A DNA stretch of 64,000 nucleotides from an uncultured Chloroflexia bacterium (GCA_963699965.1 CAVOVX010000006.1:159315-223314); one strand, 5' to 3'; shown: positions 444-56,884, numbered from the stretch's first letter. Numbers and translations: made by a program. The notes: generated by a model from the letters alone, not told the origin.

Positions 444-1284
444 TCAGCTGGCGAGGCCGGCGAGGATCTCCGCCAGCTCGGCCGCATCGTGGGCCACGGC
501 CGTCGGGCGGTCATCGGGCGGCAGCGCGTCGAGATGGGCCTGGCTCGACACGCCGGTCAGCATGAGCACGCAGCGGGCGCCGACCGCCCGCGCAGCCGCG
601 AGGTCGGTCACGATCCCGTCACCGATCATCACGGCATCCCGCGGGTCGGCCCCGACCACGTGGCAGGCCTCCTGCAGCAGCAGTGGCTCCGGCTTTCCGA
701 TCGAGATCGGGATGACGCCGGTTGCGACCTCGATAGCGGCCACGATCGCGCCGGCGCCGGGCATCAGGCGGCGCTCGGTCGGATAGACCGCGTCTCAATT
801 CGTCGCGATGAACCTTGCCCCGGCCCGGACCGCGTCGGCGGTCGACCGCCAGCCGGCCGTAGGTGATGTCGGGATCGAGCCCGACGACCACGGCGTCCGG
901 TCGTCCCGCCGCCTCGAACCCGTCGATGCCCTCCTCCGCGACCCGCGCCGCGGCTTCGCCGGCCGCCACGACTTCGAAGCCGCAGTCGGTGAGCTCGCGC
1001 CGGAGTCCGGCGCCGCCGAGGGCCAGCACCAGCCGCGGTCGAAGGTCCTGCTCCGCGAGCCACAGCGCCGTCGCGCGCGGCGAGCTCACCACCCGCTCGA
1101 CGCTGACCGGCGCGCCCATCGCGGCCAGACGGTCGACGTAGTCGGCCCGGTAGTACATCGAGTTGTTCGTGACGTAGACGACGTCGTCACCGGCCGCGGC
1201 GCGGGCAGCCAGGACGGCCGCGACTCCAGGGACCGGGTCCGCACCGCGATAGACGACGCCGTCGAGGTCGACGAGGAGGAGCAT
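444..1284 (-). pseudogene. HAD-superfamily subfamily IIA hydrolase (NagD-like), disrupted by one frameshift and one in-frame TGA
   Basis: The N-terminal part is in ORF 619..1284 (MLLLVDLDGVVYRG...VYVTNNS). The C-terminal part is in ORF 444..764 (MPGAGAIVAAIEVATG...MIGDGIVTDL). My translation of the joining frame reads STADAVRAGARFIATN*DAVYPTERRLMPGAGA, with the TGA at 797..795 falling where this family has ATNRD. Confidence 0.8.
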
Positions 1285-1378
1285 CGGCGCATCGTACCGG
1301 CCATCGACCCGGGGCGACTGGGGGCGTACGATCCGGCCAGCGTCGGCCGGGGGCGGTCGCGAGGGAGGGTCAGCGCGG

Positions 1379-3023
1379 GTGACTGCGGGCTCCGGTGCCG
1401 CCGGAACGAACGGCTTCCTGTTCTGCGACCTGCGCGGCTACACGGCATTCGTCGAAGCCCGTGGCGACCAGGCGGCAGCCGATCTCCTCGCGACGTATCG
1501 CGCCCTCGTCCGGGCGGCGATCGCGACCCATGCCGGGGCGGAGATCAAGACCGAGGGCGACTCGGTCTACGTCGTCTTCCCGGCGGCCTCGGCGGCGGTC
1601 GAGGCGGGACTCGAGATCGTCGCCGCGGCAGCCGAGGCCTCGACCCGCGATGCCCCGATCCGGGTCGGGGTCGGGGTCCATGCCGGCGAGACGGTCGCCA
1701 CGACCGAGGGCCTGGTCGGGGGCGCGGTCAACATCGCCGCCCGGGTCTGCGCCAAGGCCCAGGCCGGCGAGGTCCTCGTCACCGACACCGTCCGGGCCCT
1801 GACGAGAACCTACCTCCCGTACCGCTACACGAGCCTTGGCACCCAGCAGCTCAAGGGGATCGCCGGGGGCATCCCGCTCTACCGGGTCGAGGCCGTGCCG
1901 TCGTCGGGCCGGGCCAGGCTGACCCGCCAGCTCGGAGCCAGACGGGGCCGCGTCATCGTGCTCGCCGGGCTCGTCATCGTCGCCCTCGTCGCAGCGACCG
2001 GCGTCTATGCCCTCAACCGGCCGCCGGACTGTCTGACGCCTCCCGGCCAGCACCAAGGACGTCGTGGCCAAGATCGATCCCGCCCGCAACTGCGTCGTGG
2101 CGGTCTATCCGGTTGGGCAGCGACCGGGGGCGATCGCTGTGTCAGCTGGGCTGGTGTGGATCGCGAACCTAGACGACCGCACGTTGACGTGGATCGACCG
2201 GCAGACGCTCCATTCGGGCGCAACGGCAGCCGGCGGGCTGCCCGTCGGACTCGCGACGGGGCCGGGTTCCGTCATGGCTCTGGACCTCGGCTTCAGACGC
2301 GGCCTCGTAGTGGGAAACGGAGGGTGGGAAACAGTAGTTCCCGACCTCGTTGCACAGATTTCGAACGACAAGAAGCGATGGATTTCGGCCCCGGCAAGGC
2401 TGCCTTCACCGGGTTTGCCGGGCACTGGCGATACAGACCTCTCCGGATATCAAGGCGTTGCATTCGTCGCCGATCACGGCTGGGTTACGGATTCCCTGAC
2501 CGGACGCGTGGTTAGGATCGATCTCGAAGGTCAGGTGGATACGGTCATCCAGGTAGAAGCACCGGTGCCCACGACCGTTACGGGTCACACGCCGACGTAT
2601 GGATCCACCGGGCTTGGCGCCATTGCCGCGGGGCGCGGCGCAGTGTGGGTCGCCAATGAATTGAAGCCCATCGTCTACGACCTGGAGGGCAATGCGGCGA
2701 CGGCACTCTCACTAGGGGGCGCGGCGGGCTCGGTGGCGCTCGATGTCACCGAAGACGCGATCTGGCTGGCTAGGAGCGACGGCCAGCTCACCCGGGTGAA
2801 TCCCGTTTCGAGATCCCCCACGACCTTTGATATCGGTGGCCATGCCACGGCCCTGGCCGTCGATGCGACGACAGTGTGGGCCGCTGACTTGCTGGGGAGC
2901 GCGGTCCGACGGGTCGATGCCGGGAACGGCACCGTCCTTGCCACGCTCAAGGTTGGCGGCCGCCCGGCAGGGGTAGCGATCGCCCCGGACGGCTCGGTCT
3001 GGGTCACGATCCAGGCACCATGA
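1379..3023 (+). pseudogene. Class III adenylate/guanylate cyclase domain - TM helix - beta-propeller ectodomain receptor, copy 1 (frameshifted)
   Basis: Cyclase motifs FLFCDLRGYTAF, KTEGDSVYVVF, GVHAGE and GGAVNIAARV are followed by the TM segment VIVLAGLVIVALVAATGVY. An extra G at about 2038 relative to copy 2 breaks the frame. The ectodomain continues in ORF 2064..3023. The stop overlaps the ATG of copy 2 (ATGA at 3020). Confidence 0.8.
1397..2113 (+). repeat. Tandem-duplication segment A (cyclase domain + TM), near-identical to 3038..3753
   Basis: By-eye base-by-base comparison shows one mismatch near the start (gga/ggc). I saw no differences through about 1965, and only scattered substitutions plus a 1-nt indel after that. 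The offset is 1641 then 1640 nt. Confidence 0.9.
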
Positions 3024-4678
3024 TGCAGAGCTCCGCTGCCGCCGGCACGAACGGCTTCCTGTTCTGCGACCTGCGCGGCTACACGGCATTCGTCGAAGCC
3101 CGTGGCGACCAGGCGGCAGCCGATCTCCTCGCGACGTATCGCGCCCTCGTCCGGGCGGCGATCGCGACCCATGCCGGGGCGGAGATCAAGACCGAGGGCG
3201 ACTCGGTCTACGTCGTCTTCCCGGCGGCCTCGGCGGCGGTCGAGGCGGGACTCGAGATCGTCGCCGCGGCAGCCGAGGCCTCGACCCGCGATGCCCCGAT
3301 CCGGGTCGGGGTCGGGGTCCATGCCGGCGAGACGGTCGCCACGACCGAGGGCCTGGTCGGGGGCGCGGTCAACATCGCCGCCCGGGTCTGCGCCAAGGCC
3401 CAGGCCGGCGAGGTCCTCGTCACCGACACCGTCCGGGCCCTGACGAGAACCTACCTCCCGTACCGCTACACGAGCCTTGGCACCCAGCAGCTCAAGGGGA
3501 TCGCCGGGGGCATCCCGCTCTACCGGGTCGAGGCCGTGCCGTCGTCGGGCCGGGCCAGGCTGACCCGCCAGCTCGGAGCCAGACGGGGCCGCGTCATCGT
3601 GCTCGCCGGGCTCGTCGTCGTCGCCCTCGTCGCGGCGACCGGCGTCTATGCCCTCAACCGGCCGCCGGACTGTCTGACCCTCCCGGCCTCGACCAAGGAT
3701 GTCGTGGCCAAGATCGATCCCGCCCGCAACTGCGTCGTGGCGGTCTATCAGGTTGGATACAGCCCCGGCCCAATGGTCAGTACGGCCGACGCGGTCTGGG
3801 TGGCGAACATCGACGATCAGACCGTATCGCGGATCGACCCTAAGACTGGCGAGGTCCGAACCACATCCGCTCGGGGAACGATCAGCGGCTTCTCAGCTGC
3901 CTCCGACGGAGTCTGGATTCTGGATGGACTCCAGGGACGGCTCACGAAGATCGCGTCGTCGGATGCACGATTGGCGGACACGCTGCTGCTCCCATCAACG
4001 CCTCCCTCGGTGGTCGGAGGCGTGAGCGGCGGAAGCTTGGGCGGGTCGGCCACCCCTCGAGACACGGCCTTCACGTACGGCGACCTCGCAGCTGGCGGTG
4101 GGAAGCTATGGGTCACAAGCAGGATGGAGGGCTCGGTTCTGAAGATCGACCCACGCCGCGAAGACGTTACGAATGCAGGCTACTTTGCGATCGAGCGGCT
4201 CAAGGTGGCGATCCCGCCCGAACCCGAGACGGGCTTCAACGGCGCACTAACCTACGCAGGAACGGGAGTCGGCCTCATCACGTTCGCCGACGGCGCGCTC
4301 TGGATCGCAGACATGAGCGATGCCGCCGTCTGGAGGAGCGAGGTCGGCACCAATCACGTCCAAATCGTCCCGGTCGCGGGCGAGCCCGTCACGACGAACG
4401 CCATCGCCGAGGCGTCGGGCGTGGTCTGGGTGCTGCACGGCGACGGATCGGTAAACATCGCGTCCGCGGTCGGCAGCCAGAGCAAGGTCGTCAATGTCGG
4501 AGCCGATCTCGTTGCCGGCGCGGCGGATTCAACGGGTCTGTGGGCCGCGGACGGAGCCGGAGCACTCCTGCGTATCGATCCGACCGGGGCCGTCCTTTCA
4601 AGACTTGGGCTACCGGGCCGCCCGTCTGGTGTCACGTTTGCTCGAGACGCAATCTGGGTCTCGATCCGGGGCCGTTGA
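3020..4678 (+). CDS. Class III adenylate/guanylate cyclase domain - TM - beta-propeller ectodomain receptor, copy 2 (intact)
   Basis: 552-aa ORF. The N-terminal 215 aa are essentially identical to copy 1. The ectodomain has repeated VWV/LWV/IWV strand motifs (AVWVANIDDQTVSRIDP, GKLWVTS, GALWIAD, GVVWVL, GLWAADG, AIWVSI) typical of YVTN/NHL-like propellers. Confidence 0.85.
   Translation: MMQSSAAAGTNGFLFCDLRGYTAFVEARGDQAAADLLATYRALVRAAIATHAGAEIKTEGDSVYVVFPAASAAVEAGLEIVAAAAEASTRDAPIRVGVGVHAGETVATTEGLVGGAVNIAARVCAKAQAGEVLVTDTVRALTRTYLPYRYTSLGTQQLKGIAGGIPLYRVEAVPSSGRARLTRQLGARRGRVIVLAGLVVVALVAATGVYALNRPPDCLTLPASTKDVVAKIDPARNCVVAVYQVGYSPGPMVSTADAVWVANIDDQTVSRIDPKTGEVRTTSARGTISGFSAASDGVWILDGLQGRLTKIASSDARLADTLLLPSTPPSVVGGVSGGSLGGSATPRDTAFTYGDLAAGGGKLWVTSRMEGSVLKIDPRREDVTNAGYFAIERLKVAIPPEPETGFNGALTYAGTGVGLITFADGALWIADMSDAAVWRSEVGTNHVQIVPVAGEPVTTNAIAEASGVVWVLHGDGSVNIASAVGSQSKVVNVGADLVAGAADSTGLWAADGAGALLRIDPTGAVLSRLGLPGRPSGVTFARDAIWVSIRGR
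3038..3753 (+). repeat. Tandem-duplication segment B, partner of 1397..2113
   Basis: Same comparison as for segment A. Shadow ORFs are also duplicated (for example 1567..1788 and 3208..3429 give the same 73-aa translation). Confidence 0.9.
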
Positions 4679-4707
4679 TGTCTCGCGGGTCTCAGTGACC
4701 CATCGAC

Positions 4708-5366: not shown

Positions 5367-5852
5367 GTGAGCATCATCGACCAGCTCAACCAGGCTTGGA
5401 ACCAGATCCTCGACTTCCTGAGCCAGCTGGTGATCCCGGACTGGGGTGCGCTCATCGGGCTCATCCCGTTGGCGCTGCTCGTCCTCCTGCTCGGACCCAT
5501 CCTCAGCCTGATGGCGCTGGGCTGGCTCATCTACATGATCCGCAAGCCGCGCGCGAAGCTGGCGATCGTCGAGGGTCCGTACGCCGCTCCGCTCGACCAG
5601 GCCGGCCAGCCGGTCTTCCCGACCGGCCAGCCGTATTGCGCCCGCGACGGGCTGATCTTCCCGAGCGGGCTCACGATCTGTACGAACTGCCACGAAGAGC
5701 TCGTGGTCACCTGCCCGAAGTGCGGGATCGGCCGCCAGGCACGGGTCCGGACGTGCGCGAACTGCGGGCTCATCCTCCAGATCGACAAGAAGGCCGAGAC
5801 CCGGGCGCTCCAGCCGGCGGGACCGCCGCCGGGTGGTGCCGCGGCCGCATGA
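5367..5852 (+). CDS. Membrane protein with C-terminal zinc-ribbon (CxxC x3)
   Basis: One hydrophobic helical hairpin (LIGLIPLALLVLLLGPILSLMALGWLIY) is followed by CTNC...CPKC...CANC. The stop overlaps the ccsA start (ATGA at 5849). Confidence 0.5.
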   Translation: MSIIDQLNQAWNQILDFLSQLVIPDWGALIGLIPLALLVLLLGPILSLMALGWLIYMIRKPRAKLAIVEGPYAAPLDQAGQPVFPTGQPYCARDGLIFPSGLTICTNCHEELVVTCPKCGIGRQARVRTCANCGLILQIDKKAETRALQPAGPPPGGAAAA

Positions 5853-6794
5853 TGGCGAGCGCGGGCCAGCTCCTGTTCTCGATCGGGGTCATCGTCGTGG
5901 CCCTGGCCTTCGCCGCCCACGTCGGCCATGCCGTCCTGCTGGCCAACGGCCGGCGAGCCCTGCCCCGGGTCGTGGTCCTCCCCGAGCCGGCCTTCGCCGG
6001 CGTCGTCAGCGGCTCGTTCGTCGATCGAACGACGAGCGGGGCCACGACCGTCGGCTCGGCGAGTGGCCAGCCGGCGAGCCCACTGTCGCGCAGCGCGCAC
6101 GTCCTCGGCCTCCTCGCCGTCGTCCTGCTCGGCCTGTCGCTCGTCGCCCGCGCCGTGGCGGTTGGTCGCGGTCCGTGGGGCAACATGTTCGAGTTCACGG
6201 TTGCCTTCGGGTTCACGATCCTGGCCGGCTACCTCGTCCTCGAGCGGCGCTACCCGATCCGCTCGATCGGCTTCCTGCCGTTCGGGGTCGCCCTCACGCT
6301 CCTGCTCTACGCGAGCAGCCTGCCGAGCGACGTGAAGCCGCTCGTCCCCGCCCTCCAGAACGCGCCGCTCCTGACGATCCACGTTGGCATGGCCACGATC
6401 GCCTACGGGATCTTCGCGACGAGCTTCGCGGCCGGCGTCGGCTACCTGGTCCAGGGGACGGCCGACCGGTTCAGCTGGCTGCCCTCGCACAAGGTCCTCG
6501 ACGAGGTGGCCTACCGGGCGGTCATCATCGGCTTCCCGATCTTCGCCACGATGATCATCCTCGGCTCGTGGTGGGCGTCGATCGCCTGGTCGCGCTACTG
6601 GGGCTGGGATCCGAAGGAGACCGCGGCGCTCGTGACCTGGCTCGTCTACGCGGTCTATCTCCACGCCCGGAACCAGAAGTCGTGGGCGGGCCGGCCGGCC
6701 GCGCTGCTTCTCGTCGATCGGGTTCGGGATGGTCCTCGTGACCTACTCGGGCAGCCTCTGGTTCAACGGCCTGCACGCGTACTCGGGGCTGTAG
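5849..6794 (+). pseudogene. ccsA: Cytochrome c biogenesis protein CcsA/ResC (heme export/handling), C-terminal frameshift
   Basis: Contains the W-rich heme-handling motif WASIAWSRYWGWDPKETAAL and multiple TM segments. After GRPAALLLV the conserved end IGFGMVLVTYSGSLWFNGLHAYSGL* is in the +1 frame (6717..6794). The uncorrected frame runs on as a shadow ORF to 7882. Confidence 0.85.
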
Positions 6795-9700
6795 CCGACT
6801 CCTCGGCCTGGCGCTCGTCCGAGCGTGGCAGGGCCGCCCGACTCGGTCGCGGCTTCGATCGCATCGAGCTGAGCAAGATACGCCCGGGCGCCGAGTCGTT
6901 CGTAGGTCTTTCGGGCGGCGGCAGCCGCGGCTTGCGCCTCCGGCCGGTCGATACCGACGAGCGCGGCGAACTCGAGCCGGGTGACGGCGGTCTCGAGCCC
7001 GTCGCCCATGTCGGCCAGTCGCTCGCACGCCGCGCCATAGCCGCTGACGGCCTCCTCGATGCGTCCCTCGAGCGCCGCGATCCCGGCATCGAGCGCATGT
7101 CGCTTCGCCTGGATCATCGGGTTGCTGCTCCCGGTCGCCTCGATCGTCGCCGCCGCACTCCGCGCCCGGTCCACGTCGCCGAGCCGAAGCGCCAGCCTCC
7201 CCGCCGCCGACGCCCGTTCAGCCTCGTCGACACCGCCGTCGCCGGTCAACGCGAGGCGGGCGAGGCGGGCGAGCCCGTCGGCGAACCTCCCGGCCGCGTA
7301 GTCCACCCAGGCCAGGGAGAGCACATGGCCAACGTGCTGCTGAACGTTCGTGATCTGAGCGAGATCGGCCTCGGCCCGGACGACGGCCGCCTCCAGCCCG
7401 GCCTGGTCGCCTTCCGACGCGGCGCGGTCCATGCGGACCCAGCTGAGCTCGAGATCGGTCGTGACCGGCAGGTCGTCGTCGTCGAGCTCCGTGAGCATCC
7501 GGTCGACGACGCCCCAGTCGCCCTGGAAGTGGGAGCTGACGATGATCCCGCCGGCGAACCCGACCATCGCGCCGCGATGGCCGATCCGTTTGGCAAGCTC
7601 GAGGCCTTCGGTGATCAGCTCGATCGAGGCCCGCGGGTCGCGAAATGCGAGAAGCACGATCGCGTTGTTCCGGGCGCGGAGCTCGATCGTCGCGAGACTG
7701 TAGACCCGTGCCAGGCGGACGGCACCGAGCAGGATGACGGTGCCCTCCTCCTCGCGGAAGCTCGAGACGCTCGTGCCCTTGGTGACGAGCGTGTCGAGCG
7801 TGATCGCCGTCTCCCCGAGCCGTTCCGAGATCCCGATCGCCCGGTCGGCCAGCTCGATCGCGCGCGCGATGCTCCCCATTGAGCATGTTGGCCCGGCTCA
7901 GCTGCGACGCGACCGCCGCGATTACCGGATCGGCCTGCGGATCGGCCCCTCGACTCGATCTCGGCGAGGATCGGCGTCAGAAGCTCGATGACCTCGACCG
8001 CCTGCCCTTCGAACAGCATCGCACTCGCCCGGTCGGCCGAGACCCTCGCCGCGCCGAGCCGGTCGCCCGCCGCCCGATGGCCCGCTGCCGCTTCCTCCAG
8101 GAGACGCGAGGCCTCCGGGCCGTGTCCGGCGAACGACGCCGCCTCGGCGGCGCGTTCGCGGAGCTGCGTCTGCTCGACCGGGTCCTCGGTGACCCCGAGC
8201 GCCTGGAGCAGGAACGCGAGCGCCTGGTCGAACGAGCGGAGCTGGCTCGCCCGATCGGCCGCACCGCGGAGCGCGACCCGAGCCTGGGCGGCGAGGGTCT
8301 CGGCCTCGGGCCCGGGGGTCGCGTTGCGATACGCGTCGAGATAGTGGCTGGCCAGGACGCCGGCGATCTCGTCGTCGCCGAGCGTCTCGAAGTACTGGGC
8401 CGCTGCGAGATGGCGAGCCCGGCGCTCGCGCTTCGCCAGCGTCCCGTAGGCGACCTCGCGGATCACCGCCTGCACGAAGAGGTACTGGCCCCGCTCGGGG
8501 GAGCGCGGATCGACCTCGACCCGGAGCAGCTCCCGGTTCACGAGCCCTCCCAGGCGACCGTCGACCTCGGCCTGGTCCATCCGCGAGAGCGTCGCCAGCG
8601 CGTCGGCGGTGAAGCTGAGCCCCAGGATCGAGGCATCCTGGAGCAGCGTCCGGTCCGTCGGGTCGAGCCCGTCGAGACGTGCCGCAACGAGCGCGTGGAG
8701 GGTCTCCGGGACCGACAGCCGGTCGAGCGCGCCGCGCACCGCGTAGACGTCGCCGTCGCGGACGAGGCGTTCGTCGGTCACGAGCATCCGGACGGTTTCG
8801 ACGGCGTACAGGGGGACCCCTTCGGCTCGAGCCAGGATCGCCCGGATCGCCGGCTCGGGCAGGCCCGGGACGAGCCCATTGAGGAGCGCCCGCATCGCAT
8901 CCGCGTCGAGTGGTTCCAGGTGGAGGCTCGTGAAGTTGCGCTGGCCGGCTCCCCAGTCGGGCCTCCGCTCGAGGATCTCCGGCCGGGACAGGGTGATGAC
9001 GAAGATCGGGTGGCTGCGCGACCACTGGAGGAGGTGGCCGATGAACTCGAACAGCCCGCTGTCGGCCCATTGGAGGTCCTCGAACACGAGGACGACCGTG
9101 CCGAGCGCCGAGATGCGCTCGAAGAACGTTCGCCACGCGGCGAACAGCTCCCCGGCGCTGCCTCGATCGCCGCCCGGATCCTCGCCCAACCCGAGCAGGG
9201 CCATGAGCCGGGGCTCGATCCACTGTCGTTCGGTGTCGTCCGGGACGTACTCGGCCAGCGCGGAGCGGAGCTTCTCGAGCGACTCGACCGGGTCATCGGT
9301 CTCGGCGATCCGCGCCCGCGCCCGGATCATCTCGCCGAGCGCCCAGAACGTGACGCCGTCGCCGACCGCCGGGGACCGGCCCTGATGCCAGTAGACCGGC
9401 TCGGTCAGCCCGTCGATGTACTTCTCGAACTCCCAGGCCAGGCGCGACTTGCCGATGCCGGCCGGCCCGACGATCGACACGACCCGGATCCGCGTCTCGC
9501 GCGACGTCGTGTGGAACAGGTCCTTGAGCAGGCGCAGCTCGTCGTCGCGACCGACGAACGGCGGCTCGAGCGCCTCGGACCTGCGGGCCCCGCCCCGGCC
9601 GGCCACGACCCGCAGCGCTCGCCAGGCACTGAGGGCGGCCCGGCCCTTCATCTCGACCTCACCGACCGACTCGAACGCGATCGCCCTCGAGGCCGCCCGG

Positions 9701-10440
9701 TGGGTCGCGTCGCCGACGAGCACCGAGCCAGCCTGGGCGGCCGACTGGAGACGGGACGCGGCGTTGACGAGGTCGCCGGCGACCATCGCCTGGCCGGCAT
9801 TCCCGACGGTAACCGCCGCCTCGCCGGTCAGGATCCCGACCCGCAGGGCCGGTGGCCCGTCGCGGCCCGGGAGCTGCGATACGGCGTCAACGAGCTCGAG
9901 GCCGGCCCGGACCGCCTGCTCGGCGTCGTCCTCGCGGGCGACCGGTGCGCCCCAGACCGCCATGACCGCGTCCCCGATGAACTTCTCGACGGTGCCGCCG
10001 TACCGCCCGATCACCTCGCGGGAGTGCTCGAAGTAGGCATCGAGGAAGGCTCTCGTGTCCTCCGGGTCGCGCGTCTCCGAGGCCGAGGTGAACCCGACGA
10101 GGTCGGCGAAGAGCACGCTCACCAGCCGCAGCTCGGGTGATGCCGCGGCGCCGGCCGTCGATAGCTGGCTCCCGGGCGCTGAGCCGGGAGGCTCGGCGGT
10201 GCCTTCGCCCGGGCCCGGGCCGGGAACGCCGGCGGTCACGGGTACGCCGGCGGCGCCCGCGCTCGTCGGGGTGCCGCATTCCGGGCAGAACCGGGCGCCG
10301 GCCGGGAGGGTCGCGCCGCATTCCGGGCAGGGCGCATCGAGCCGAGCGCCGCATTCCGGGCAGAACCGCTGGCCTGGCTGAACCTCGCTCCCGCAGCTGT
10401 GGCAGCGCATGTGCCCTCTCGGATCGTCGAGTGAGGCCAC
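6743..10440 (-). pseudogene. Double zinc-ribbon - class III cyclase domain - STAND/AAA ATPase - TPR-like repeat protein, two frameshifts near 7870 and 7948
   Basis: The N-terminus is CHSCGSEV..CPECG..CPECG..CPECG. The cyclase motifs are VSVLFADLVGFT, KFIGDAVMAVWG and VGILTGEA. The Walker A motif is VGPAGIGKSRL. The helical-repeat tail continues through LTPILAEIESRG / ADPQADPVIAAVASQLSRANMLNGEH / (M)GSIARAIELADRAIGISERLGE across three frames (ORFs 7615..10440, 7218..7886, 6743..7879). Confidence 0.85.
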
Positions 10441-15615: not shown

Positions 15616-15662
15616 GCGCACCCGACGGCGCCAGCGGGTAGTCCGCGAACCGCGCACTCTTC

Positions 15663-15740
15663 GGCCCAGGCTGCGGGGCCCAAGCGGCATCCCCCTCGGC
15701 CCAGGCAGCATATCCTCGGCCCAGGCTCCTTGGCCCAGGC
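15663..15740. repeat. Five dispersed copies of GGCCCAGGC (one is GGCCCAAGC)
   Basis: Copies at 15663, 15677, 15698, 15718 and 15732, mostly preceded by C(T/C)(T/C). They begin 48 nt after the stop of the cyclase-PQQ-NHL gene. Confidence 0.85.
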
Positions 15741-15917
15741 GGCGTCTCCTTCAGCTCGAGTTCTGACAGATGCACACCACGCGAGCGTTCGTCGACCCGA
15801 AGACGCTCCCTGGCCAAAGCTCGAGAGGAAGATCGTCCCGAGTCACGCTCGTCGCGGGATGGATTCCGTTCGGATCGACGCCGGAGGCCCGCAGCGTGTT
15901 GTCGAATGACCGCCTCG

Positions 15918-16038
15918 CGTGCATCTGACAAGGATCGCCGCCGGGGGCACGCATCTCGCACGAAACGCGGCCGGGGGGCGCATCTCGCACGAAGCGCCGC
16001 CGTGGGGCGTGCGTCTGCACATTGCGTCGTCGCCGGTG
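15918..16038. repeat. Degenerate tandem repeat of about 30 bp, 4 units (core GCATCT(C)GCAC ... CGCCGCCGGGGG)
   Basis: Units at 15918-15947, 15948-15978, 15979-16007 and 16008-16038. Unit 1 (GTGCATCTGACA, 15919-15930) is also an 11/12 inverted match to TGACAGATGCAC at 15764-15775. Confidence 0.8.
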
Positions 16039-16161
16039 ATCGCCGCCACCCGATAGGTCCAATACCGCACGCCCGTTCTATACTGACCTGGCCGCGCGGC
16101 TCCTCGGAGACGGGCAGACCCGTCGCAACAGCCTGGCGTCGGGCGACCGCGAGAACCCATC

Positions 16162-16251
16162 GTGTCCACACGTTGTCCACCCCCGTCCCGAGCCTGTCCA
16201 CGCTCCCTGGCGACCTGTCCACGCTCGGAGGCCCAGTCGTCCACATCCACA
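16162..16251 (+). promoter_or_regulatory. Array of six DnaA-box-like 9-mers, all in the same orientation, upstream of nrdJ
   Basis: GTGTCCACA 16162, TTGTCCACC 16173, CTGTCCACG 16194, CTGTCCACG 16215, TCGTCCACA 16237 and ACATCCACA 16243. Start-to-start spacing is 11, 21, 21, 22 and 6 bp. The high-GC actinobacterial DnaA-box consensus as I recall it is TTGTCCACA / YYRTCCACA. Confidence 0.55.
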
Positions 16252-16295
16252 GCATGTAGCGGTGCGTGACTTCACCAGACCACTACATGTTGTGT
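16247..16295 (+). promoter_or_regulatory. Two NrdR-box-like 16-bp palindromes
   Basis: CCACAGCATGTAGCGG (16247-16262) matches the recalled consensus acaCwAtATaTwGtgt at 10/16. CCACTACATGTTGTGT (16280-16295) matches at 13/16. Their starts are 33 bp apart, and the pair abuts the -35 element. Confidence 0.5.
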
Positions 16296-16302
16296 TTTCG
16301 GC

Positions 16303-16331
16303 TTGACGCGCATATTCGCCAGGCGTAGAGT
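16303..16331 (+). promoter_or_regulatory. Sigma70-type promoter TTGACG-N17-TAGAGT for nrdJ
   Basis: The -35 is at 16303-16308 and the -10 at 16326-16331, with an exact 17-nt spacer. It lies about 290 nt upstream of the nrdJ start. Confidence 0.5.
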
Positions 16332-44743: not shown

Positions 44744-45496
44744 ATGGACGAGACGATCGACTGGCTCGGTCACGCCACCGTCCGGATCGAGCTCGATGGG
44801 ATCCGGATCCTGACCGATCCGGCGATCCGCCAGCGGATCGGCCCGCTCGACCGAAAGGTCGCCCCGATCCCCCACCGCGAGGTGGAGGCGATCGACGTCG
44901 TCCTGATCAGTCATCTCCACCAGGACCACCTCGACCTGCCCTCGCTGCGCCGGCTGGGCGACCCTCGGCTGATCGTCCCGGCCGGCTCCGGCTCGATCTT
45001 CCGGGCCGCCGGCCATCGTGACGTCGACGAGCACGTCCCGGGCGACCGGACGAGCCACGGCTCGCTGACGATCGAGATGATCCGGGCCGAGCACAGCGGC
45101 TTCCGACCGCCGTTCGGACCGACCGCGCCGGCACTCGGCTTCGTGATCTCGACCGGCCGGCGCCGGATCTACTTCGCTGGCGACACCGCGATCTATCCGG
45201 GGATGGCCGACATCCCCGACCTCGACATCGCTTTCGTCCCGGTCTGGGGCTGGGGACCGAACCTGCGCGGCGGCCACATGGACCCGCGGATGGCGGCCGA
45301 GGCCGTGGCCCTCCTCCAGCCGCGGGTCGCCGTGCCGATCCATTGGGGAACGTTCTGGCCGAAGGGCCTGGGGCTCGTTCGCCCCGACCGGCTGCTGCTG
45401 CCCGGGTCCGAGTTCCGGACCGCGGCAGCGGAGATCGCGCCGAACGTCCGCACGGCGATCCTGGCGCCCGGCGAGCGGTTGTCGCGGTCCCGCTGA
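44744..45496 (+). CDS. MBL-fold metallo-hydrolase (UPF0173/UlaG-related type)
   Basis: Motifs are VVLISHLHQDHLD, YFAGDTA and VPIHWGTF. The ATG at 44744 lies within a longer ORF. Confidence 0.8.
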   Translation: MDETIDWLGHATVRIELDGIRILTDPAIRQRIGPLDRKVAPIPHREVEAIDVVLISHLHQDHLDLPSLRRLGDPRLIVPAGSGSIFRAAGHRDVDEHVPGDRTSHGSLTIEMIRAEHSGFRPPFGPTAPALGFVISTGRRRIYFAGDTAIYPGMADIPDLDIAFVPVWGWGPNLRGGHMDPRMAAEAVALLQPRVAVPIHWGTFWPKGLGLVRPDRLLLPGSEFRTAAAEIAPNVRTAILAPGERLSRSR

Positions 45497-45696
45497 CCGT
45501 CGGCCGGGCCCGACCGCCACCAGCCGCAGCGGACCGCCGCCGACTCGACCGGACCCACCCCCGGCCGGTGCCCCGACGCACCGGAAAGGTCCCGGCAGCA
45601 CCCCTGAACCCTCGCCGGACGGGGATGGCCGGCATATCCTCGCGCCCCATCGACCGCGATTGGCCTCGTGACCGATGGATCCCTTGGGGGGATCTG

Positions 45697-45728
45697 AGAG
45701 CGCCGGAGTCTCACCGCTCCGGCGCTCT
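45697..45728 (+). terminator. Strong GC hairpin (12-bp perfect stem) in the spacer before the helicase gene
   Basis: AGAGCGCCGGAG-tctcaccg-CTCCGGCGCTCT is followed by tcgattcc (a weak U-tract). It lies about 200 nt after the MBL gene stop. Confidence 0.4.
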
Positions 45729-45770
45729 TCGATTCCGCCGCCGGGCGCCGACGACGACCCGGCCGTGGAC

Positions 45771-45799
45771 TTGTCCGGCGGCTCAACACGGCGTAGCAT
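45771..45799 (+). promoter_or_regulatory. Sigma70-type promoter candidate TTGTCC-N17-TAGCAT
   Basis: The spacer is exactly 17 nt. A transcript from here would have a leader of about 460 nt before the helicase start. Confidence 0.4.
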
Positions 45800-46264
45800 T
45801 TGGGCTACGAGAGGTCCGCGGACGACCGATCGACGGCCCGCCCCAACGGACCCGGCGAAGGCTCGCGACCAGATGCGCATCGACCGCAGCAGACCGGGAC
45901 GAACCGGCCGGAGCGACGACCCGCGAACGAGCGGGGCCACGCTGCCGATGACGGCGGATCCATCGCGCGGAGCCACGAACCTCGCCACGATCCCCTACTC
46001 GGGGAACATCAGCACGGATACTCGGGCGGGCTTCTGAGACGCGTCCGGGCAAGGGGTCCGCGGCGCGGAATTGCAGACAGAACAGCGGAGACCCGAGCTC
46101 GTCCGAGCGTGGGTCTCGTGACGTTCCGGGCCGATCGGCTATGCTCCGCTCCGAAACGACGCGCACGGTCCGTTGACCGGACACGCGGGGCGACACAGCC
46201 CGATCCGCGTCGGCAATCACGATCCGCCCGCACGGCTCCGGCCCAACGGGCGCCAGGAGCCTGC

Positions 46265-47533
46265 TTGACCTTCGACCATCTCGGCCTGTCGGCCGACATC
46301 CTTCGTGCCGTTGCGGACGAGGGCTACACCGAACCAACCCCGATCCAGGACAAGGCCGTCCCGTTCGTCCTCGCCGGCCGCGACGTGCTGGCCGCCGCCC
46401 AGACCGGGACCGGCAAGACGGCTGCCTTTACCTGGCCGATCCTCGAGCGGCTGAAGGACCAGGCGAACTCGAGCTTCTCGCCCGCGCGTCACCCGGTCCG
46501 CGCCCTGATGATCACGCCGACCCGCGAACTGGCGATGCAGATCGCCGACAGCGTGGCGGCCTACGGCCGGCACGTCCCGCTGCGCAGCGCGGTCGTCTAC
46601 GGCGGCGTTCCGATCGAGCCACAGATCAAGGAGCTGCGGGCCGGCGTCGAGATCCTCGTCGCCACCCCTGGCCGCCTGATGGATCACGTCGGGCAGCGCA
46701 CGGTCAACCTGTCGCAGGTCGAGATCCTGGTCCTCGACGAGGCGGATCGGATGCTCGACATGGGGTTCATCCCGGACATCCGCAAGATCGTCGCCCTCCT
46801 GCCGGAGCGACGCCAGAACCTGCTCTTCAGCGCGACGTTCTCGGACGAGATCCGGCGCCTGTCCAAGGAGTTCCTGCACGACCCGGCGACCGTCGAGGTG
46901 GCCGCCCGGAACACCGCCGCTGAGGGCGTCGAGCAGGTCCTCTACCCGGTCGACCGCGACCGCAAGGAGGATCTGCTCATCCACCTCATCCGGCGCGACA
47001 AGATGGAGCAGGTCCTCGTGTTCACCCGGACCAAGCTCGCCGCCAGCCGGCTCGCCTCGTACCTCGATCGGCGCGGGGTCAACGCCGTCGCGATCCACTC
47101 GGATCGCAGCCAGCCAGAGCGCACCCGGGCCCTCGAGGACTTCAAGCGCGGCGAGGTGACCTGCCTCGTGGCGACGGACGTGGCGTCGCGCGGGCTGGAC
47201 ATCGAGGAGCTGCCGTACGTGGTGAACTTCGAGCTTCCGTTCGAGGCGCTCGACTATCTCCACCGGATCGGGCGGACCGGCCGGGCCGGATCGAAGGGGA
47301 TCGCGATCTCGCTCGTGTGCATGGACGAGGTCGAGCTGCTGCGTGCCGTCCAGCGGCTGCTCAAGAAGGCGATCCCGTTCCGGGTCGTCGAGGGGTTCGA
47401 GCCGGACAAGACGATCCCGTCACGACCGATCCGCGGGTTCGGCCGTGACGGTGGATCTGGCCCCGACGGGCGGACCCACCACGCCCATCACAAGCCGATC
47501 CGGACCAGGCCCGCGGGCCGCCGGGCGAGCTAA
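46265..47533 (+). CDS. rhlE: DEAD-box ATP-dependent RNA helicase (RhlE-like)
   Basis: Q motif region GYTEPTPIQ, AQTGTGKT, PTRELA, VLDEADRMLDMGF, SAT and HRIGRTGRAG. The start is a TTG at 46265 with GGAG 5 nt upstream. The C-terminal tail is basic. Confidence 0.9.
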   Translation: MTFDHLGLSADILRAVADEGYTEPTPIQDKAVPFVLAGRDVLAAAQTGTGKTAAFTWPILERLKDQANSSFSPARHPVRALMITPTRELAMQIADSVAAYGRHVPLRSAVVYGGVPIEPQIKELRAGVEILVATPGRLMDHVGQRTVNLSQVEILVLDEADRMLDMGFIPDIRKIVALLPERRQNLLFSATFSDEIRRLSKEFLHDPATVEVAARNTAAEGVEQVLYPVDRDRKEDLLIHLIRRDKMEQVLVFTRTKLAASRLASYLDRRGVNAVAIHSDRSQPERTRALEDFKRGEVTCLVATDVASRGLDIEELPYVVNFELPFEALDYLHRIGRTGRAGSKGIAISLVCMDEVELLRAVQRLLKKAIPFRVVEGFEPDKTIPSRPIRGFGRDGGSGPDGRTHHAHHKPIRTRPAGRRAS

Positions 47534-47566: not shown

Positions 47567-48986
47567 CTAGGGCGCCGCGGCCGTCGAGGTCGGCGCCGGG
47601 CCCGAAGGCGACGGCGAGGCATCGGCGAGCGGCTTCGGCAGGGCGATCGACACGAGCTTGGCGGTCAGCGGGCGGAGGTCGACCCCGTTCTGATTGGTCA
47701 GGACGGCGATGGCCAGCCCGGACTTGGGCAGGTAGCGCAGCTCGCCGCGAGCTCCGATGAACCGGCCGCTGTGACCGTACGCCCGCCGACCGTCGACGAC
47801 GGTCACCTGGACGCCGAGTCCGTACGGCACGTACGGACGGTAGGCGGCGGTCTGCTTCGTGTCGCCGACGGCCAGGCTGAGCGTCTCCGGGCGCAGGACC
47901 TTGCCGCCGTAGAGGGCCCTGGCCCAGGCCGCCAGGTCCGACGAGGTCGCGGCGACGTCGCCCGCCGACCCGGCCGCCGTCACGACCGAGGTGAACGGCA
48001 CGATCGCCCCGCGCGCATCGGCGAGGTCGATCGGCTTGGCCGACGGCCCCGCCCGGTTGTAGTAGTAGCCGTGCGCGAGCGGGCCACGTGGCTGCTCGGC
48101 GCCCTGGATGTAGGCGTGCTCGAGGCGGAGTGGATCGACCAGGCGATCCCGGACGAGCTCGGCGAAGGGCGCGCCGCCGACCTGCTCGGCCACGAGCCCG
48201 AGCAGCAGGTAGTTCGTGTTCGAGTAGTGCCACGATCGGCCGGGCGTGCCGACTGCCTTGCCGACGTAGGCCAGGGCCCGATCGGCCGTCCAGGTGGCGC
48301 CACGATCGGCCATCGAGGGCCTTGTCGACCCCCTGGCCGAAGAAGAAGTCGGCCAGCCCGCTCGTGTGGTCGAGCAGCATCCGGACGGTGACGGCGGTCG
48401 GGATCGGCCGGGGCGGCTTCCCAAGGCGCACGTTCGGCAGGATCGTGGCGACCTTCGTGTCGAGGCCGAGCTTGCCGTCGTCGACCAGACCGAGGATCAG
48501 CGCCGCGGTGAACGTCTTCGACATGCTCGCGATCGCAAAGGTCGTGTCGGCGGTGACCGCCCGACCCGCCTTGACGTCGGCGTAGCCGGTCGTGCCGGTC
48601 CAGCTCCGGCCGTCCGGCCAGCTGATCGAGACGCTCGACCCGGGCAGCCGGTTCACCCGCGCGAAGCGGTCCAGGCTCCGCTGGAGTCGGGCGGCAACGT
48701 CAGGGCTGATCTCGGTGCCGGCCGGCAGGCCGGGGGTCGGCGTCGGCGTCGGCGTGGGGCCGGGAGTCGAGGAGGGCGTCGGTTGCCCAGGGGTCGGGGT
48801 CGGTCCCGATCCGCCGAGGTCGCCGTTCCCTGCCGTGGCGGCCGCCACGCCCGACGCCGGGACGGTCGCGGTCGGGCCGGTCGAGCCCGCCGGGGAGCCT
48901 GATCCCGGGACGCCGCTCACGACGAACAGCCCGGCGGCCACGACCGCGGCAAGGAGGAGCGGTCCGACCAGATTCCGACGGGACAT
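47567..48986 (-). pseudogene. Serine hydrolase of the beta-lactamase/D-Ala-D-Ala carboxypeptidase (class C-like) family, secreted; frameshifted near 48314
   Basis: A signal/TM segment and a Pro/Thr linker come first. The SxxK motif is in AIASMSKTFTAA, followed by LLDHTSGL. After a shift at VDKAL the frame reads MADRGATWTADRALAYV...YSNTNYLLLG...GHSGRFIG (ORF 47567..48424). Confidence 0.8.
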
Positions 48987-51090: not shown

Positions 51091-51466
51091 GTGGCTCGGC
51101 GAGGAGCGGTCATCTTGAGCGTGCTCGCCGCGTCGCTGATCGTCGCGGGCTGCTCGTCGTCTCCCCCGGCCAGCGCAGGCGTCGATCGACCCGAGCGTGG
51201 TCAGGCTGGTGGCCTCGGGCGCGCAGTTCATCACAAAGGACGCTTCGGCCCCGGCCAACAAGCCCTTCCAGATCGCGTTCGAGAGCCAGACCTCCGAGGG
51301 GCACGACCTGGCGATCGCCCTGCCGAACGCCGATCCGATCTTCCGCTCGGAGGTCTTCCCCGGCCCGACGACGAAGACATTCGCGATTGAGCCACTGGCC
51401 GCCGGCTCGTACATCTATCGCTGCGACGTCCATCCCGGGATGCAGGGGATCCTGACGGTCAAGTAG
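51091..51466 (+). pseudogene. Cupredoxin (plastocyanin/azurin-like) lipoprotein, frameshifted near 51185
   Basis: A lipobox signal LSVLAASLIVAGCSSS is in ORF 51091... After the shift comes the cupredoxin body with type-1 Cu ligands (EGHDLAI ... YRCDVHPGMQG) in ORF 51197..51466. Confidence 0.7.
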
Positions 51467-51478
51467 GCCAGCCCCGGG

Positions 51479-53395: not shown

Positions 53396-54785
53396 TTGTC
53401 CGTGCCCGACCAGGGACCCCTCCATCCGCGCGTCCGCGCAACCCGGCCCGGTGTCCGCGCGAGCCGGCGGCGACGAGTTGGCGGGCGGGGTGGCCGGACC
53501 CGGCTGGTGCTGCTCGCGGCGATCGGCCTGGTCGTCGGGGCCCTGTCACTCGCACCGACGGTCGGTGCCGCCGCGCCAGTGTCCGTCGCGCCCGACGCGA
53601 CCCCATCGGAGCCGATCATGTTCTACGGCCGCGGCTACGGCCACGGGGTCGGGATGTCGCAGTACGGGGCGCGCGGTCGGGCGCTGGCCGGCCAGGACGC
53701 GGCGACGATCCTCGCTCATTACTACCAGGGGACGACGCTCGGTGCGACCGACCCGAACCGCCCGGTCCGGATCCTCGTCCTCCAGTCGTTCAAGCCGTCC
53801 GCCGCCAGGCCGCTCAGGCTCTACGGCCGCGGCGGCTCGTGGACGATCGACAGGATCGCGACCACGTTTCCCCGCGACGCGCAGCTCCGGGTGACGAAGG
53901 CGGGTGCCGGGTTCCGCCTCGTCGTGCGTTCGAAATCGGGCGGCCTGCTCCTCGATCATCGCTCGTCGGGCCTCGTGCGCGTTCGCGCCGGGACCGCGGC
54001 CGGTGCCCGGATCCAGGTCTGGTCGAAGCCCGGGAGCTTCGACCGCTATCGCGGCGTGATCCGCCTGCGCTCGACGAAGTCCGGGGTCGACGCGATCAAC
54101 GAGACCCAGCTCGACCTCTACCTGCGGGGAGTCGTCCCGGTCGAGATGCCGTCGTCCTGGCCGGTCGAGGCGCTCCGCGCCCAGGCGATCGCCGCCCGGA
54201 GCTACGCCGGACACCGACTCCATCCGAAGACCGGCCAGTGGGACCTGTACGACGACGGCCGGACCCAGGTGTACCGCGGCTCGCTCGCCGAGAAGGCGGC
54301 CACGAACGCCGCGATTGCCGACACCGCCGGGCAGGTCGTCCGGAGCGGGACGAGGATCGCCAACACGCTCTTCCATTCGACTGGCGGCGGAGCCACCGAG
54401 GACAACGAGAACGTGTTCACTTCCGCTGACCGGCAAGATCGTCGCCGGGCCCGTGTCGTACCTCCGTGGCTCGGCCGACCGCGCCGAGGACGGCACGCCG
54501 TATGACGCCGGCGCCCCACGCGCGTCGTGGCAGACCGCCGCCTATACGCTCGACCAGCTGTCGGCCGTGTTCGGCGCCGACCCGCGGACGAACGTCGGGC
54601 CGATCGACGCGCTCGACCTGTCGAAGGTCGGGGTCTCCGGCCGGCTGATCAGCGTGACCCTCCACGGCAGCCTCGGCACGAAGACCGTCTCAGGGGCCGT
54701 GTTCCGCTCGGTGTTCAACGCCGAGACGCCGGCGACCGACCCGTTCATGTGGAGCACCCTCGTCTCGACGGCGCCGATCCCCTGA
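53396..54785 (+). pseudogene. SpoIID/LytB domain protein (secreted), frameshifted near 54428
   Basis: Motifs are GRGYGHGVGMSQYGA, YLRGVVPVEMP, EALRAQAIAARSYA and LFHSTGGGATEDNENVF. After the shift the frame reads TGKIVAGPVSYLRGSAD... (ORF 54315..54785). The start is a TTG at 53396 with AGGAGA upstream. Confidence 0.85.
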
Positions 54786-54828
54786 CGGGACCGGCGCCCG
54801 TACCGGCTAATTGAGCCGGACATGAAAG

Positions 54829-54858: not shown

Positions 54859-54877
54859 GAGGGAGGGTAGCCGGCGA

Positions 54878-55358
54878 TCAGTCGTCGCTGCCGTGGCCAC
54901 CGTGGTCGTTGCCGCCCTTGTCGTCGGCGCCGTGGCCGCTCGTGGAGCTGCCACCGTTGTCGTCGGCGCGATGGCTGGTCTTGGAGCTGCCGCCGTTGTC
55001 GCGTCGGCGCTCAGCGGTCACTGCGTGGCGCCGCCCTTGTCGTCGCCGGGCTCAGCAGTCGCGCCGGCGCCCTTGTCGTCACCGGGCTCGAGCTCGCCCC
55101 GACCGCCCTTGTCATCACCGGGCTCAGCCGTCGCGCTCGCGCCGTTGTCGTTTCCGGGCTCGGCGGTCGCGCTGGCGCCGTTGTCGTCGCCCGGCTCGGT
55201 CGTCGGGCGGGCCGCCCGGTCGTCGACCGACTGGAGCTCACGCGCGAGCGTGATCGTGTCCGGGGCCTGGGCCCAACCGCGGGTCCGGCAAGGCTGTTGC
55301 CGACGGCGACGGCCAATGCGGCCACTGCGACGACGAGGCTGATGCGGATCTTGTTCAT
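54878..55358 (-). pseudogene. Small secreted acidic protein made of about 12-aa EPGDD(N/K)G-type repeats; two frame breaks
   Basis: The ATG at 55358 has GGAGA 5-6 nt upstream. The signal peptide is MNKIRISLVVAVAALAVAVGNSLA. In a second frame the sequence reads AQAPDTITLARELQSVDDRAARPTTEPGDDNGASATAEPGNDNGASATAEPGDDKGGRGELEPGDDKGAGATAEPGDDKGGATQ. In a third frame it reads VTAERRRDNGGSSKTSHRADDNGGSSTSGHGADDKGGNDHGGHGSDD*. Confidence 0.6.
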
Positions 55359-55485
55359 GGCGTTCTCCCTGGGTCGACTGGTCTGGCGATTTGGTTCGCT
55401 GAGACGAGGTTGCGGCCGTCCACAGGCGTCCACAACGGACCACGGGGCTGAAACCTTTCAGACCTTGGTCTGACTCGTACGAGGT

Positions 55486-56884
55486 GTGACCACCGACACC
55501 GCGACGCTCGGCACGCTGATCGACGTCCAGCCAACGACCCGCGTCGGACACATGTCCCTTGCCCGGCGCTTCCTGCTGGCCAACCTGCTCGTGGTCGTCG
55601 TCGCCAGCCTCGCGGTCGGAGCGTGGGTCGGCTCCGAGCTGGAGAAGGGCGTGCTCGACCGGACCGCGTCGATCACGGCCCTCTACATCGAGAGCTTCGT
55701 CGAGCCGCAGGTCGAGATCATGTCGACGAACGGAGCGCTGACGGCCGCCAATGTCGACGCGCTCGACCACCTCCTGTCGGACACCCAGCTCGGCGAGCGG
55801 ATCGTGTCGTTCCGCGTCTGGACGCCCGGTGGCGTGATCGCCTACTCGCCGAACCGCGAGCTGATCGGGCGACAGTTCGAGCCCGGAGGGCGGCCTCGCA
55901 CACGCCCTGGCCGGGGCCGTCGCGACCGACATCAGTGACCTGAGCGGGCCCGAGAACACCTACGAGCGCCAGCGTTGGCCGAGGTTGGTCGAGACGTACG
56001 TGCCGGTTCGCGAACGCGGCGGTCCGCGGATCATCGGCGTCACCGAGTTCTACCAGCTCCCGGACGAGATCGACGCCGAGGTCGCGTCGGCACGCCTGGG
56101 ATCCTGGACGGTCCTCGCCCTCGCTGCCCTGGTCTCCTACCTCCTCCTGGCCGGGATCGTGAAGGGCGGCAGTGACATGATCGAGCGGCAGCAACAGGCT
56201 CTCCGCCGACGCGTCGCCGAGCTGTCCAGCCTCCTCGAGCAGAATGCCGGCCTCCACGACCGTCTCCGCCGCTCGGCTGAGCGAACCACCGCGCTCAACG
56301 AAAGCGGCTTGCGCCGGATCGGCAGCGACCTCCACGACGGACCAGCCCAGACGATGGCGCTCGCCCTGCTCCGACTCGACGAGCTCGATGCTGCGGGCGG
56401 CGTGTCAGAGGCCATCGGGAGTGCCCTCGACGACCTTCGCTCGATCGCCGCCGGGCTCCGCTCGCCGGCGTTCGACGACCTGTCGCTCGCTGACGTTGCC
56501 GAGCGAGCGATCCGCGAGCATGAGCGACGAACGGGCAAGTCCATCTCGTCGACCGTCGCGAGCCCGCTGCCCGTGGTCCCGGTCGTCACGAAGATCGCGA
56601 CCTATCGTGTGCTCCAGGAAGCGCTCTCGAACGCGACCCGGCACGCCGCCGGAGCGGAGGTCGAAGTCGTGATCGCGGCAACGCCGCGCGACGTCCGGCT
56701 CGAAGTCCGCGATCGTGGGCCGGGCTTCGACTCGGGCACGATCCGGTCTCACGCGCTCGGTGTCGCCGGAATGCGCGAGCGCGCCGAGCTCCTCGGCGGT
56801 TCCTTCGAAATCGCGCGTCGAACTGATGGCCCGGGCACGGTCGTCCGACTCGCCCTGCCCGTGAATGTTGGAGTCCAGGAATGA
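55486..56884 (+). pseudogene. Sensor histidine kinase (HisKA_3/NarX-DesK type) with periplasmic sensor domain, frameshifted near 55888
   Basis: The sequence runs through TM1 and a sensor domain, then shifts at IGRQFEP and reads EGGLAHALAGAVATDISDLSGPENTYE. TM2 follows, then the H-box RRIGSDLHDGPAQ and the ATPase motifs LSNATRHA, DRGPGF and GVAGMRERAELLGG. Confidence 0.85.

Follow-up and report, generated by a model that had tools for sequence, protein, structure and literature searches.

Massive pseudogenisation is characteristic of reductive genomes, for example those of Mycobacterium leprae and of recently host-restricted symbionts. In real decay the essential genes are spared, frameshifts are accompanied by nonsense codons and deletions, constraint is relaxed, and lesions are common to close lineages. 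Methylation-induced base-calling errors of Nanopore sequencing arise at Dam/Dcm-like motifs and are mainly substitutions. The consensus errors of Nanopore data are usually described as homopolymer-associated (PMC9262707), and an excess of insertions is the profile quoted for raw PacBio CLR reads (bioRxiv 10.1101/2021.08.23.457338). After frameshift correction, Nanopore metagenome-assembled genomes (MAGs) that had been about 85% complete reached about 94-95% (PMC8103633).

In the 64,000-nucleotide stretch of DNA analysed here (hereafter the window), an initial annotation had listed about 20 single-base frame disruptions in otherwise conserved genes. From the comparison of sequences, we put at about 0.93 the probability that these disruptions arose as consensus errors when a metagenome was assembled from noisy long reads, and that the genes concerned are not decaying.

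Source genome and detection of frame breaks

The window belongs to a MAG of 15 contigs, 3.56 Mb and 71% GC from an uncultured soil lineage of Chloroflexota/Chloroflexia, which is a species representative in the genome set used. Its completeness was estimated at only 70% despite the high contiguity. The genus includes many closely related soil MAGs. Two relatives bear MFD (Microflora Danica) MAG names, and the MFD MAGs were obtained from Nanopore-only data by Flye assembly and one round of Medaka polishing (PMC12313526).

Frame switches were detected with a codon-usage Viterbi model trained on the window's genome, taking same-strand switches far from the stop of the old frame. For frameshift-aware tblastn, the queries were unbroken ORFs of as many as 8 genomes of the same genus (75-97% identical). 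For the pairwise count of lesions between the window's genome (G000) and its closest relative (G017), 406 kb were aligned by blastn with affine gap costs and clustering, which replaced lenient blastn gap costs and megablast, both of which gave hundreds of compensating gap pairs. A 2.5-kb segment is missing from G017. No family above threshold was found by Rfam scan of the window.

Single-base lesions in the window

The breaks are present in the deposited sequence, and Viterbi, tblastn and DNA alignments placed them about 0-30 nt from where they had initially been located, apart from the FAD oxidoreductase break and one merely plausible break in a repeat protein (both below). Compared with 1-8 same-genus genomes with intact frames, the window carried one extra base at 17 sites and one base fewer at 3. 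At every testable site the ORF was uninterrupted in these relatives, and the window differed by exactly one base more or fewer. One nonsense codon was found against about 21 single-base indels.

That nonsense codon, the in-frame TGA at 795-797 in a HAD-type hydrolase gene (444-1284, minus strand), exists as claimed; the relatives carry CGC (Arg), and of the 4 adjacent bases 3 are not those of the closest relative. About 50 nt away, a 1-nt insertion was mapped at 842-846 (844, minus strand), where GGT[C/G]ACC has become GGTCGACC; tblastn set the break at 836-844 with 8 relatives intact, and Viterbi switches fell at 792 and 841. On the plus strand, cyclase copy 1 has a 1-nt insertion at 2036-2038 (2037; TGA-GCC to TGACGCC; Viterbi 2038, tblastn 2040 with one supporting genome). 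Near its 3' end, a ccsA/resC-like cytochrome c assembly gene of the same strand has another at 6714-6717 (6715; GTCG-TCGG to GTCGATCGG; Viterbi 6706, tblastn 6681-6715 with 7 relatives). The ccsA frame is that of ORF 5847-6706, and Pfam search of ORF 5833-6741, which is not in this frame, gave no match.

On the minus strand, DNA alignment placed two 1-nt insertions in the cyclase-AAA_16 (STAND) gene, one in the C-terminal part at 7867-7870 (7869; Viterbi 7879, tblastn 7797-7876, 2 genomes) and one at 7943-7946 (7945; Viterbi 7948, tblastn 7943-7951, 2 genomes). It likewise placed a 1-nt deletion in the NTase-GNAT gene at 21689-21693 (21691; Viterbi 21689, tblastn 21687-21693, 2 genomes), an inserted T in a metallo-beta-lactamase-fold hydrolase gene at 24764-24768 (24766; Viterbi 24757, tblastn 24763-24771, 5 genomes), where the match to PF00753 breaks off at position 139 of the 196 in the model, and an inserted A in a YbaK-like gene at 25474-25478 (25476; Viterbi 25482, tblastn 25469-25477, 4 genomes). 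The AlkA-like gene (plus strand) has a 1-nt insertion by its 3' end, placed by DNA alignment at 26960-26970 (about 26965; tblastn 26939-26976, 6 relatives). The FAD oxidoreductase gene (minus strand) is indeed broken, by a 1-nt deletion (GGG to GG) at 28715-28720 (28717; tblastn 28700-28784, 2 genomes). The site lies about 110 nt into the gene and about 100 nt from the previously proposed 28825; an ATG at about 28829-28831 is conserved.

Four more minus-strand genes each have a 1-nt insertion placed by DNA alignment, the first three being a class I/II aminotransferase gene at 30797-30802 (about 30800; Viterbi 30829, tblastn 30797-30802, 7 genomes), an MmcQ-like gene by its 3' end at 36718-36722 (extra base at 36721), where a break had been thought possible, and a serine hydrolase gene at 48312-48316 (48314; Viterbi 48311, tblastn 48300-48337, 4 genomes). 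In the fourth, a DUF72 gene, five relatives indicated a change of GG to GGG at 38065-38070 (38068), about 25 nt into the gene; the break had been correctly recognised and misplaced to 38083-38086. On the plus strand, insertions of 1 nt were found by DNA alignment in the gene for a YafY-type regulator at 38811-38818 (about 38815; Viterbi 38820, tblastn 38807-38818, 7 genomes), with the WYL domain cut at 52 of 70 and WCX in the next frame, and in a SpoIID-domain gene at 54425-54430 (54428; Viterbi 54418, tblastn 54424-54432, 5 relatives). A small plus-strand gene absent from the first list has a 1-nt insertion at 59885-59890 (about 59887).

The remaining breaks separate parts of one protein. A +1 shift at 51170-51190 (plus strand) lies between a lipoprotein signal peptide and a cupredoxin domain, which form one ORF in relatives G005 and G011 and stand in adjacent frames in the window. 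Another at 55829-55890 (plus strand; Viterbi 55881, tblastn over the same interval with one genome) divides a sensor histidine kinase gene into its N-terminal sensor part and its HATPase_c part. Of the two breaks proposed for the secreted EPGDDKG-repeat protein (minus strand), the -1 shift at 55270-55285, between signal peptide and repeats, was confirmed (Viterbi 55284, tblastn 55272 with one genome; a single ORF in G016), and the other, at 55015-55025, is plausible from an alignment of low complexity.

As had been claimed, the downstream frame stays conserved past the breaks. Protein identity to the relatives upstream and downstream of the breaks was, for example, 83 and 87%, 96 and 97%, and 74 and 79%, and Pfam domains divide cleanly between the two frames (PF00155 of the aminotransferase into 3-173 and 179-360, PF00144 of the serine hydrolase into 13-117 and 135-315).

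Genome-wide load and explanation of the breaks

All 15 contigs are affected: the Viterbi model detected about 1,817 frame breaks in the genome (5.1 per 10 kb), and alignment to the closest relative gave about 0.9 breaks per kb. The same detector gave roughly 0-1 candidates per 10 kb on short-read-like relatives; among relatives, lower completeness goes loosely with higher lesion density. Within the 406 kb, one-base gaps outnumbered three-base gaps 14:1 (1,309 versus 91). Frame-breaking lesions private to the window's genome numbered 369 (82% insertions), and 85 others, likewise insertion-biased and at other positions, were private to G017. Single-copy rpoB has two breaks and runs through three frames, whose matches follow one another along the model (4-154, 156-1122 and 1120-1238), and single-copy rpoC also has two breaks in three frames. 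The gyrA and secA genes are intact and lie on the contig of lowest lesion density, where about one lesion would be expected. A fragment of secA is duplicated at a contig end.

Insertions made up 72-82% of lesions. The inserted bases (G 40, C 35, T 14 and A 11%) mirror the genome composition, and 77% are non-homopolymeric, differing from both neighbours; the claim that several breaks sit in G/C runs thus holds for a minority only. Lesion density varied from 0 to 46 per 10 kb (dispersion index 13) and was patchy at the 10-50 kb scale. It rose with the frequency of mismatches nearby (rho 0.49, p 0.001) and did not correlate with GC. Mismatch in lesion regions was 6.5-7%, against 5.6% overall; this was a regional rise only, with no tight mismatch clusters beside the lesions.

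Under the preferred explanation, thin read support would have let the consensus keep spurious single bases, mostly insertions with some deletions, together with some wrong bases. Each spurious base would shift the frame of an otherwise intact gene, and the protein would then run on, conserved, in the neighbouring frame to its normal stop. For the window's genome we infer low coverage and, from the relatives alone, the platform; the reads would be expected not to support the extra bases. Counted against consensus error are the insertion-dominated, non-homopolymeric profile, which is unlike the homopolymer deletions classically left in a Nanopore consensus, the intact gyrA and secA, and the double lesion of the HAD hydrolase, which could be a true pseudogene.

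The initial annotation had left open extremely recent pseudogenisation, in which the indels would be real mutations in the DNA of an organism under reductive decay. The lesions do exist in the deposited sequence and lie in slightly more divergent regions, and a single gene, that of the HAD hydrolase, carries a pair of independent lesions separated by 50 nt, one of them a nonsense codon. As a general explanation decay is nevertheless unsupported and very improbable: essential genes are not spared, as indicated by rpoB and rpoC; about 0.9 breaks per kb would leave most genes dead; no break is common to any relative in tblastn or alignments; and the closest assembly has private lesions with the same insertion bias. 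The persisting conservation, the swings of density, and the near lack of nonsense codons and the lack of larger deletions, both correctly noted before, argue in the same direction. The earlier preference for consensus indel errors over old pseudogenes was thus borne out by lesions that are assembly-private, genome-wide including rpoB and rpoC, mostly of one base, and patchy, with conservation kept. It is just as improbable that a minority of lesions is real, the HAD hydrolase being the best candidate, or that the population tolerates widespread +1 insertions by recoding. The latter form is contradicted by the assembly-private lesions, the lack of a motif, the patchiness at 10 kb and the breaks in rpoB and rpoC.

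Still less probable is a mixed-strain consensus, a sub-type of assembly artefact in which indels would be chimeric calls where co-assembled strains differ. The numerous related MAGs of the genus, the patchy lesion density following local mismatch, and the duplicated secA fragment are all consistent with it, and the present data do not separate it from simple low coverage; strain mixing alone, however, yields no single extra bases inside conserved codons.

As little credence is due to systematic base-calling error linked to methylation or to a motif at C-G-AT(C/G) or GATC-like sites, which would also be an artefact, of a context-specific kind. This context had been pointed out initially, with the caution that it might be chance. 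CGAT[CG] or its complement did occur within 7 nt on either side of 7 of the 16 exactly mapped window lesions, compared with a background of 15%, but this test is circular because the motif was picked from those very sites. Larger samples refute the suggestion. For the 311 lesions that were mapped exactly on the rest of the contig, the frequency of CGAT[CG] was 16.7% against a background of 16.3% (z 0.2), that of GATC 15.4% against 15.3%, and that of CGATCG 4.8% against 3.3% (z 1.5); across the genome, the ratio for CGAT[CG] around 1,757 Viterbi breaks was 0.95. Only a weak excess of CGCGCG/GCGC-type k-mers (1.4-2.5-fold) was detected around breaks, with no position-specific base signal around insertions and no methylation-type motif genome-wide. 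Programmed ribosomal frameshifting, transcriptional slippage and recoding were rejected, as the sites have no common motif and the relatives read these proteins in one frame.

Consequences and comparison with known systems

The frame breaks almost certainly represent no new biology. As a probable assembly artefact they therefore matter mainly as an annotation warning. Errors that break the frame would occur about once every 1-2 kb in the window's genome, with local densities of up to about 4-5 per kb. Frameshift-aware tools are therefore needed to interpret its gene calls, its number of pseudogenes, its completeness of 70% and any 'split gene', 'truncated domain' or 'novel short ORF' reported from it. 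The same caution applies, to a lesser degree, to long-read sister MAGs. The error profile, with about 80% insertions, non-homopolymeric, of genome-like composition, patchy and free of a methylation motif, departs from textbook homopolymer deletion and could interest those who polish high-GC Nanopore MAGs.

Compared with decay of the M. leprae type, the window's genome is alike in having many interrupted genes that are intact in relatives. It is unlike it in that rpoB and rpoC are broken, the lesions are almost exclusively of one base and private, and conservation is intact. Like methylation-linked errors at Dam/Dcm motifs, its breaks would be a systematic artefact of Nanopore data, and a few window lesions adjoin GATC or CGATCG, but its lesions are indels and no motif is enriched. 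It also differs from the usual Nanopore consensus errors in its share of insertions (72-82%) and in that 77% of the inserted bases are not homopolymer extensions. The closest likeness is to the indel errors of long-read-only assemblies, the target of proovframe, of MEGAN-LR/DIAMOND frameshift correction and of the IDEEL test. Such errors inflate gene and pseudogene counts and lower marker completeness, more severely at low coverage, and they split conserved genes into adjacent frames, as observed here.

Frame breaks in the window

The initial annotation had listed about 20 positions at which a conserved gene appeared to leave its reading frame. A codon-usage model was trained on 1,053 long high-GC3 ORFs of the genome and decoded as a 7-state Viterbi detector in which homology was not used. 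Same-strand switches were detected at nearly all of the listed positions, and within the window the old frame remained open for 56-949 nt beyond each switch, as compared with at most 19 nt at ordinary gene junctions. Uninterrupted ORFs were also taken from the syntenic region in each of eight genomes of the same genus and used as tblastn queries against the window. At 16 sites one protein carried on in the adjacent frame with contiguous protein coordinates, each site being supported by 1-8 genomes. Nucleotide alignments showed one extra base in the window at 844, 2037, 6715, 7869, 7945, 24766, 25476, ~26965, ~30800, 36721, 38068, ~38815, 48314 and 54428, and one missing base at 21691 and 28717. 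The lesions proposed for the FAD oxidoreductase and DUF72 genes were present, but had to be relocated to ~28717, downstream of a start codon kept in all relatives, and to ~38068, respectively. One further break, at ~59887, was added to the list.

Pfam models split between frames provided evidence independent of the relatives. PF00155 was divided in the aminotransferase (3-173 and 179-360 of 361) and PF00144 in the beta-lactamase-type gene (13-117 and 135-315 of 329); PF00753 was cut at 139 of 196 and WYL at 52 of 70, with WCX following in the next frame. The proposed cupredoxin break was borne out by the placement of the lipoprotein signal peptide and the PF13473 domain in successive frames; in two same-genus genomes (G005 and G011) both belong to a single ORF. 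Another such genome, G016, backed the histidine kinase break and carried as one ORF the EPGDDKG-repeat protein, of which signal and repeats lie in separate frames in the window; the second break claimed for this gene, at ~55020, is plausible at most. The TGA reported at 795-797 was also found; it is CGC in the relatives, and three of four adjacent window bases differ from those of the closest relative. A small number of the lesions may be genuine, the first candidate being the HAD hydrolase, which is hit twice.

The genes for NrdJ, a 954-aa propeller protein and a 956-aa secreted protein were intact in the window. By our own arithmetic, a lesion-free gap of 13.7 kb has p ~0.3 given ~21 events in 64 kb, so these long intact genes call for no special explanation. 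The nrdJ gene (16625-20959, plus strand), encoding a class II, B12-dependent ribonucleotide reductase, contains inside its barrel domain an in-frame intein ~400 aa long that bears a homing-endonuclease domain of the LAGLIDADG type (PF14890 and PF14528, residues ~460-810); exactly this segment is missing from several same-genus and same-order genomes (query 1239-2430 unmatched). The adenylate/guanylate cyclase gene with an AAA_16 (STAND) domain at 7951-10131 (minus strand) belongs to a large paralogous family, the 2-kb core of which recurs at many separate loci per genome with 68-72% DNA identity in every relative searched. Codon usage gave no coding signal over two stretches of 0.8-1.0 kb: 15593-16621, upstream of nrdJ, which also gave no Rfam match, and 45474-46267, which spans the 5' third of a long ORF (45800-47533) and includes a 1-nt gap at 45869 relative to the closest relative, G017.

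Comparison with the closest relative and genome-wide load

A 465-kb part of a G017 contig was compared with C6, the contig carrying the window at 159315-223314, and was found to be colinear with it at 92-96% identity. Affine-gap alignment over 405.7 kb gave 22,412 mismatches, 870 single-base gaps with the extra base in the genome under study, 439 with the extra base in G017, and 91 three-base gaps. Such a gap-length spectrum in mostly coding DNA cannot be a product of evolution under selection. Gaps were clustered and then scored by which genome loses coding frame, yielding 369 lesions private to the genome under study (0.9 per kb; 287 net +1 and 82 net -1) and 85 private to G017, again mainly extra bases. 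The two sets lie at different positions, indicating that each assembly has its own lesions. On G017 contig C10, private single-base frame breaks were located opposite window positions 25579, 32551/32585, 33458, 42788 and 48868, where the window genes are intact; they include one compensating pair 34 nt apart. G017 lacks a segment of ~2.5 kb (2144-4703) that holds two ORFs (2064-3023 and 3020-4678); the flanks of this segment lie only ~0.8 kb apart there.

The Viterbi detector found 1,817 candidate breaks in the whole genome (5.1 per 10 kb) and every contig was affected, as compared with ~0-1 per 10 kb in short-read-like relatives and 0.6-0.9 in cleaner long-read ones. The window, at ~0.3 breaks per kb, lies under the C6 average of ~0.9 per kb. 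The sole copy of rpoB was spread over three frames, contiguous in model coordinates (4-154, 156-1122 and 1120-1238), and the sole copy of rpoC was likewise spread over three; the two genes lie at 17.5-25.4 kb of contig C5. Both gyrA and secA were intact on C3, the contig with the lowest break density; ~1 break was expected there, and their intactness is therefore compatible with random placement. Besides the complete gene on C3, a second secA fragment (model positions 729-787) was noted at the extreme end of the small contig C15 (24-200); this contig end may be duplicated or a haplotig.

Origin and profile of the breaks

We conclude, with a probability of roughly 0.93, that the frame breaks are assembly indel errors and no real biological feature. 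At low depth, spurious bases would be kept in the assembler or polisher consensus, each shifting the frame of the deposited sequence, and the affected genes would be intact in the organism itself. Protein conservation after the breaks equalled that before them (upstream/downstream, for example, 83/87, 96/97 and 74/79%), as expected of errors; extremely recent mutations would fit equal conservation too. Such mutations, however, cannot explain the overall pattern: broken rpoB and rpoC are beyond their reach, and they leave unaccounted for the density of ~1 break per kb, the patchiness and the private set of each assembly. Lesion counts ranged from 0 to 46 per 10 kb (index of dispersion 13) and were correlated with the rate of local mismatches to G017 (rho 0.49, p 0.001), with neither GC nor the lesions of G017 itself showing correlation; mismatches beside lesions rose merely regionally, with no tight clustering. 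This patchiness fits contig stretches of thin read support under the assembly-error reading. Hot zones of C6 at ~50-100 kb and ~300-350 kb carry ~2-2.4 private breaks per kb, with up to 4.7 per kb in individual bins of 10 kb, and the cleanest zones are tenfold lower.

The genome comprises 3.56 Mb in 15 contigs at 71% GC, with an estimated completeness of 70% and contamination of 1.1%. Completeness was likewise low (61-89%) in several genomes of the genus that consist of very few contigs, and 92% in one of 210 contigs. Indel artefacts of this kind and their effect on completeness are described in earlier reports (PMC8103633; bioRxiv 10.1101/2021.08.23.457338; PMC9262707). Two relatives are MAGs of 'uncultured Chloroflexia bacterium isolate MFD...' (MFD, Microflora Danica), and we infer the sequencing platform of the present genome from its relatives.

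The error profile was based on 311 exactly mapped private single-base lesions. Inserted bases followed genome composition (G 40%, C 35%, T 14%, A 11%), and 77% were unlike both neighbours, where 57% would be expected per base, indicating that they are not homopolymer slips. The bases around these lesions showed no preference at any particular position. A CGAT(C/G) context had been suspected, and indeed occurs in 7 of the 16 window lesions, the same sites that prompted the motif; the excess failed to replicate among the 311 lesions (16.7%, against 16.3% of control positions) or genome-wide (ratio 0.95 at 1,757 Viterbi breaks), and GATC was likewise not enriched at the 311 lesions (15.4% against 15.3%). 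Mild enrichment, 1.4-2.5x, was limited to CGCGCG/GCGC-like strings. As compared with Nanopore consensus errors as usually described, the insertion excess and the non-homopolymer nature of the lesions are atypical, and they form the single mildly unexpected aspect.
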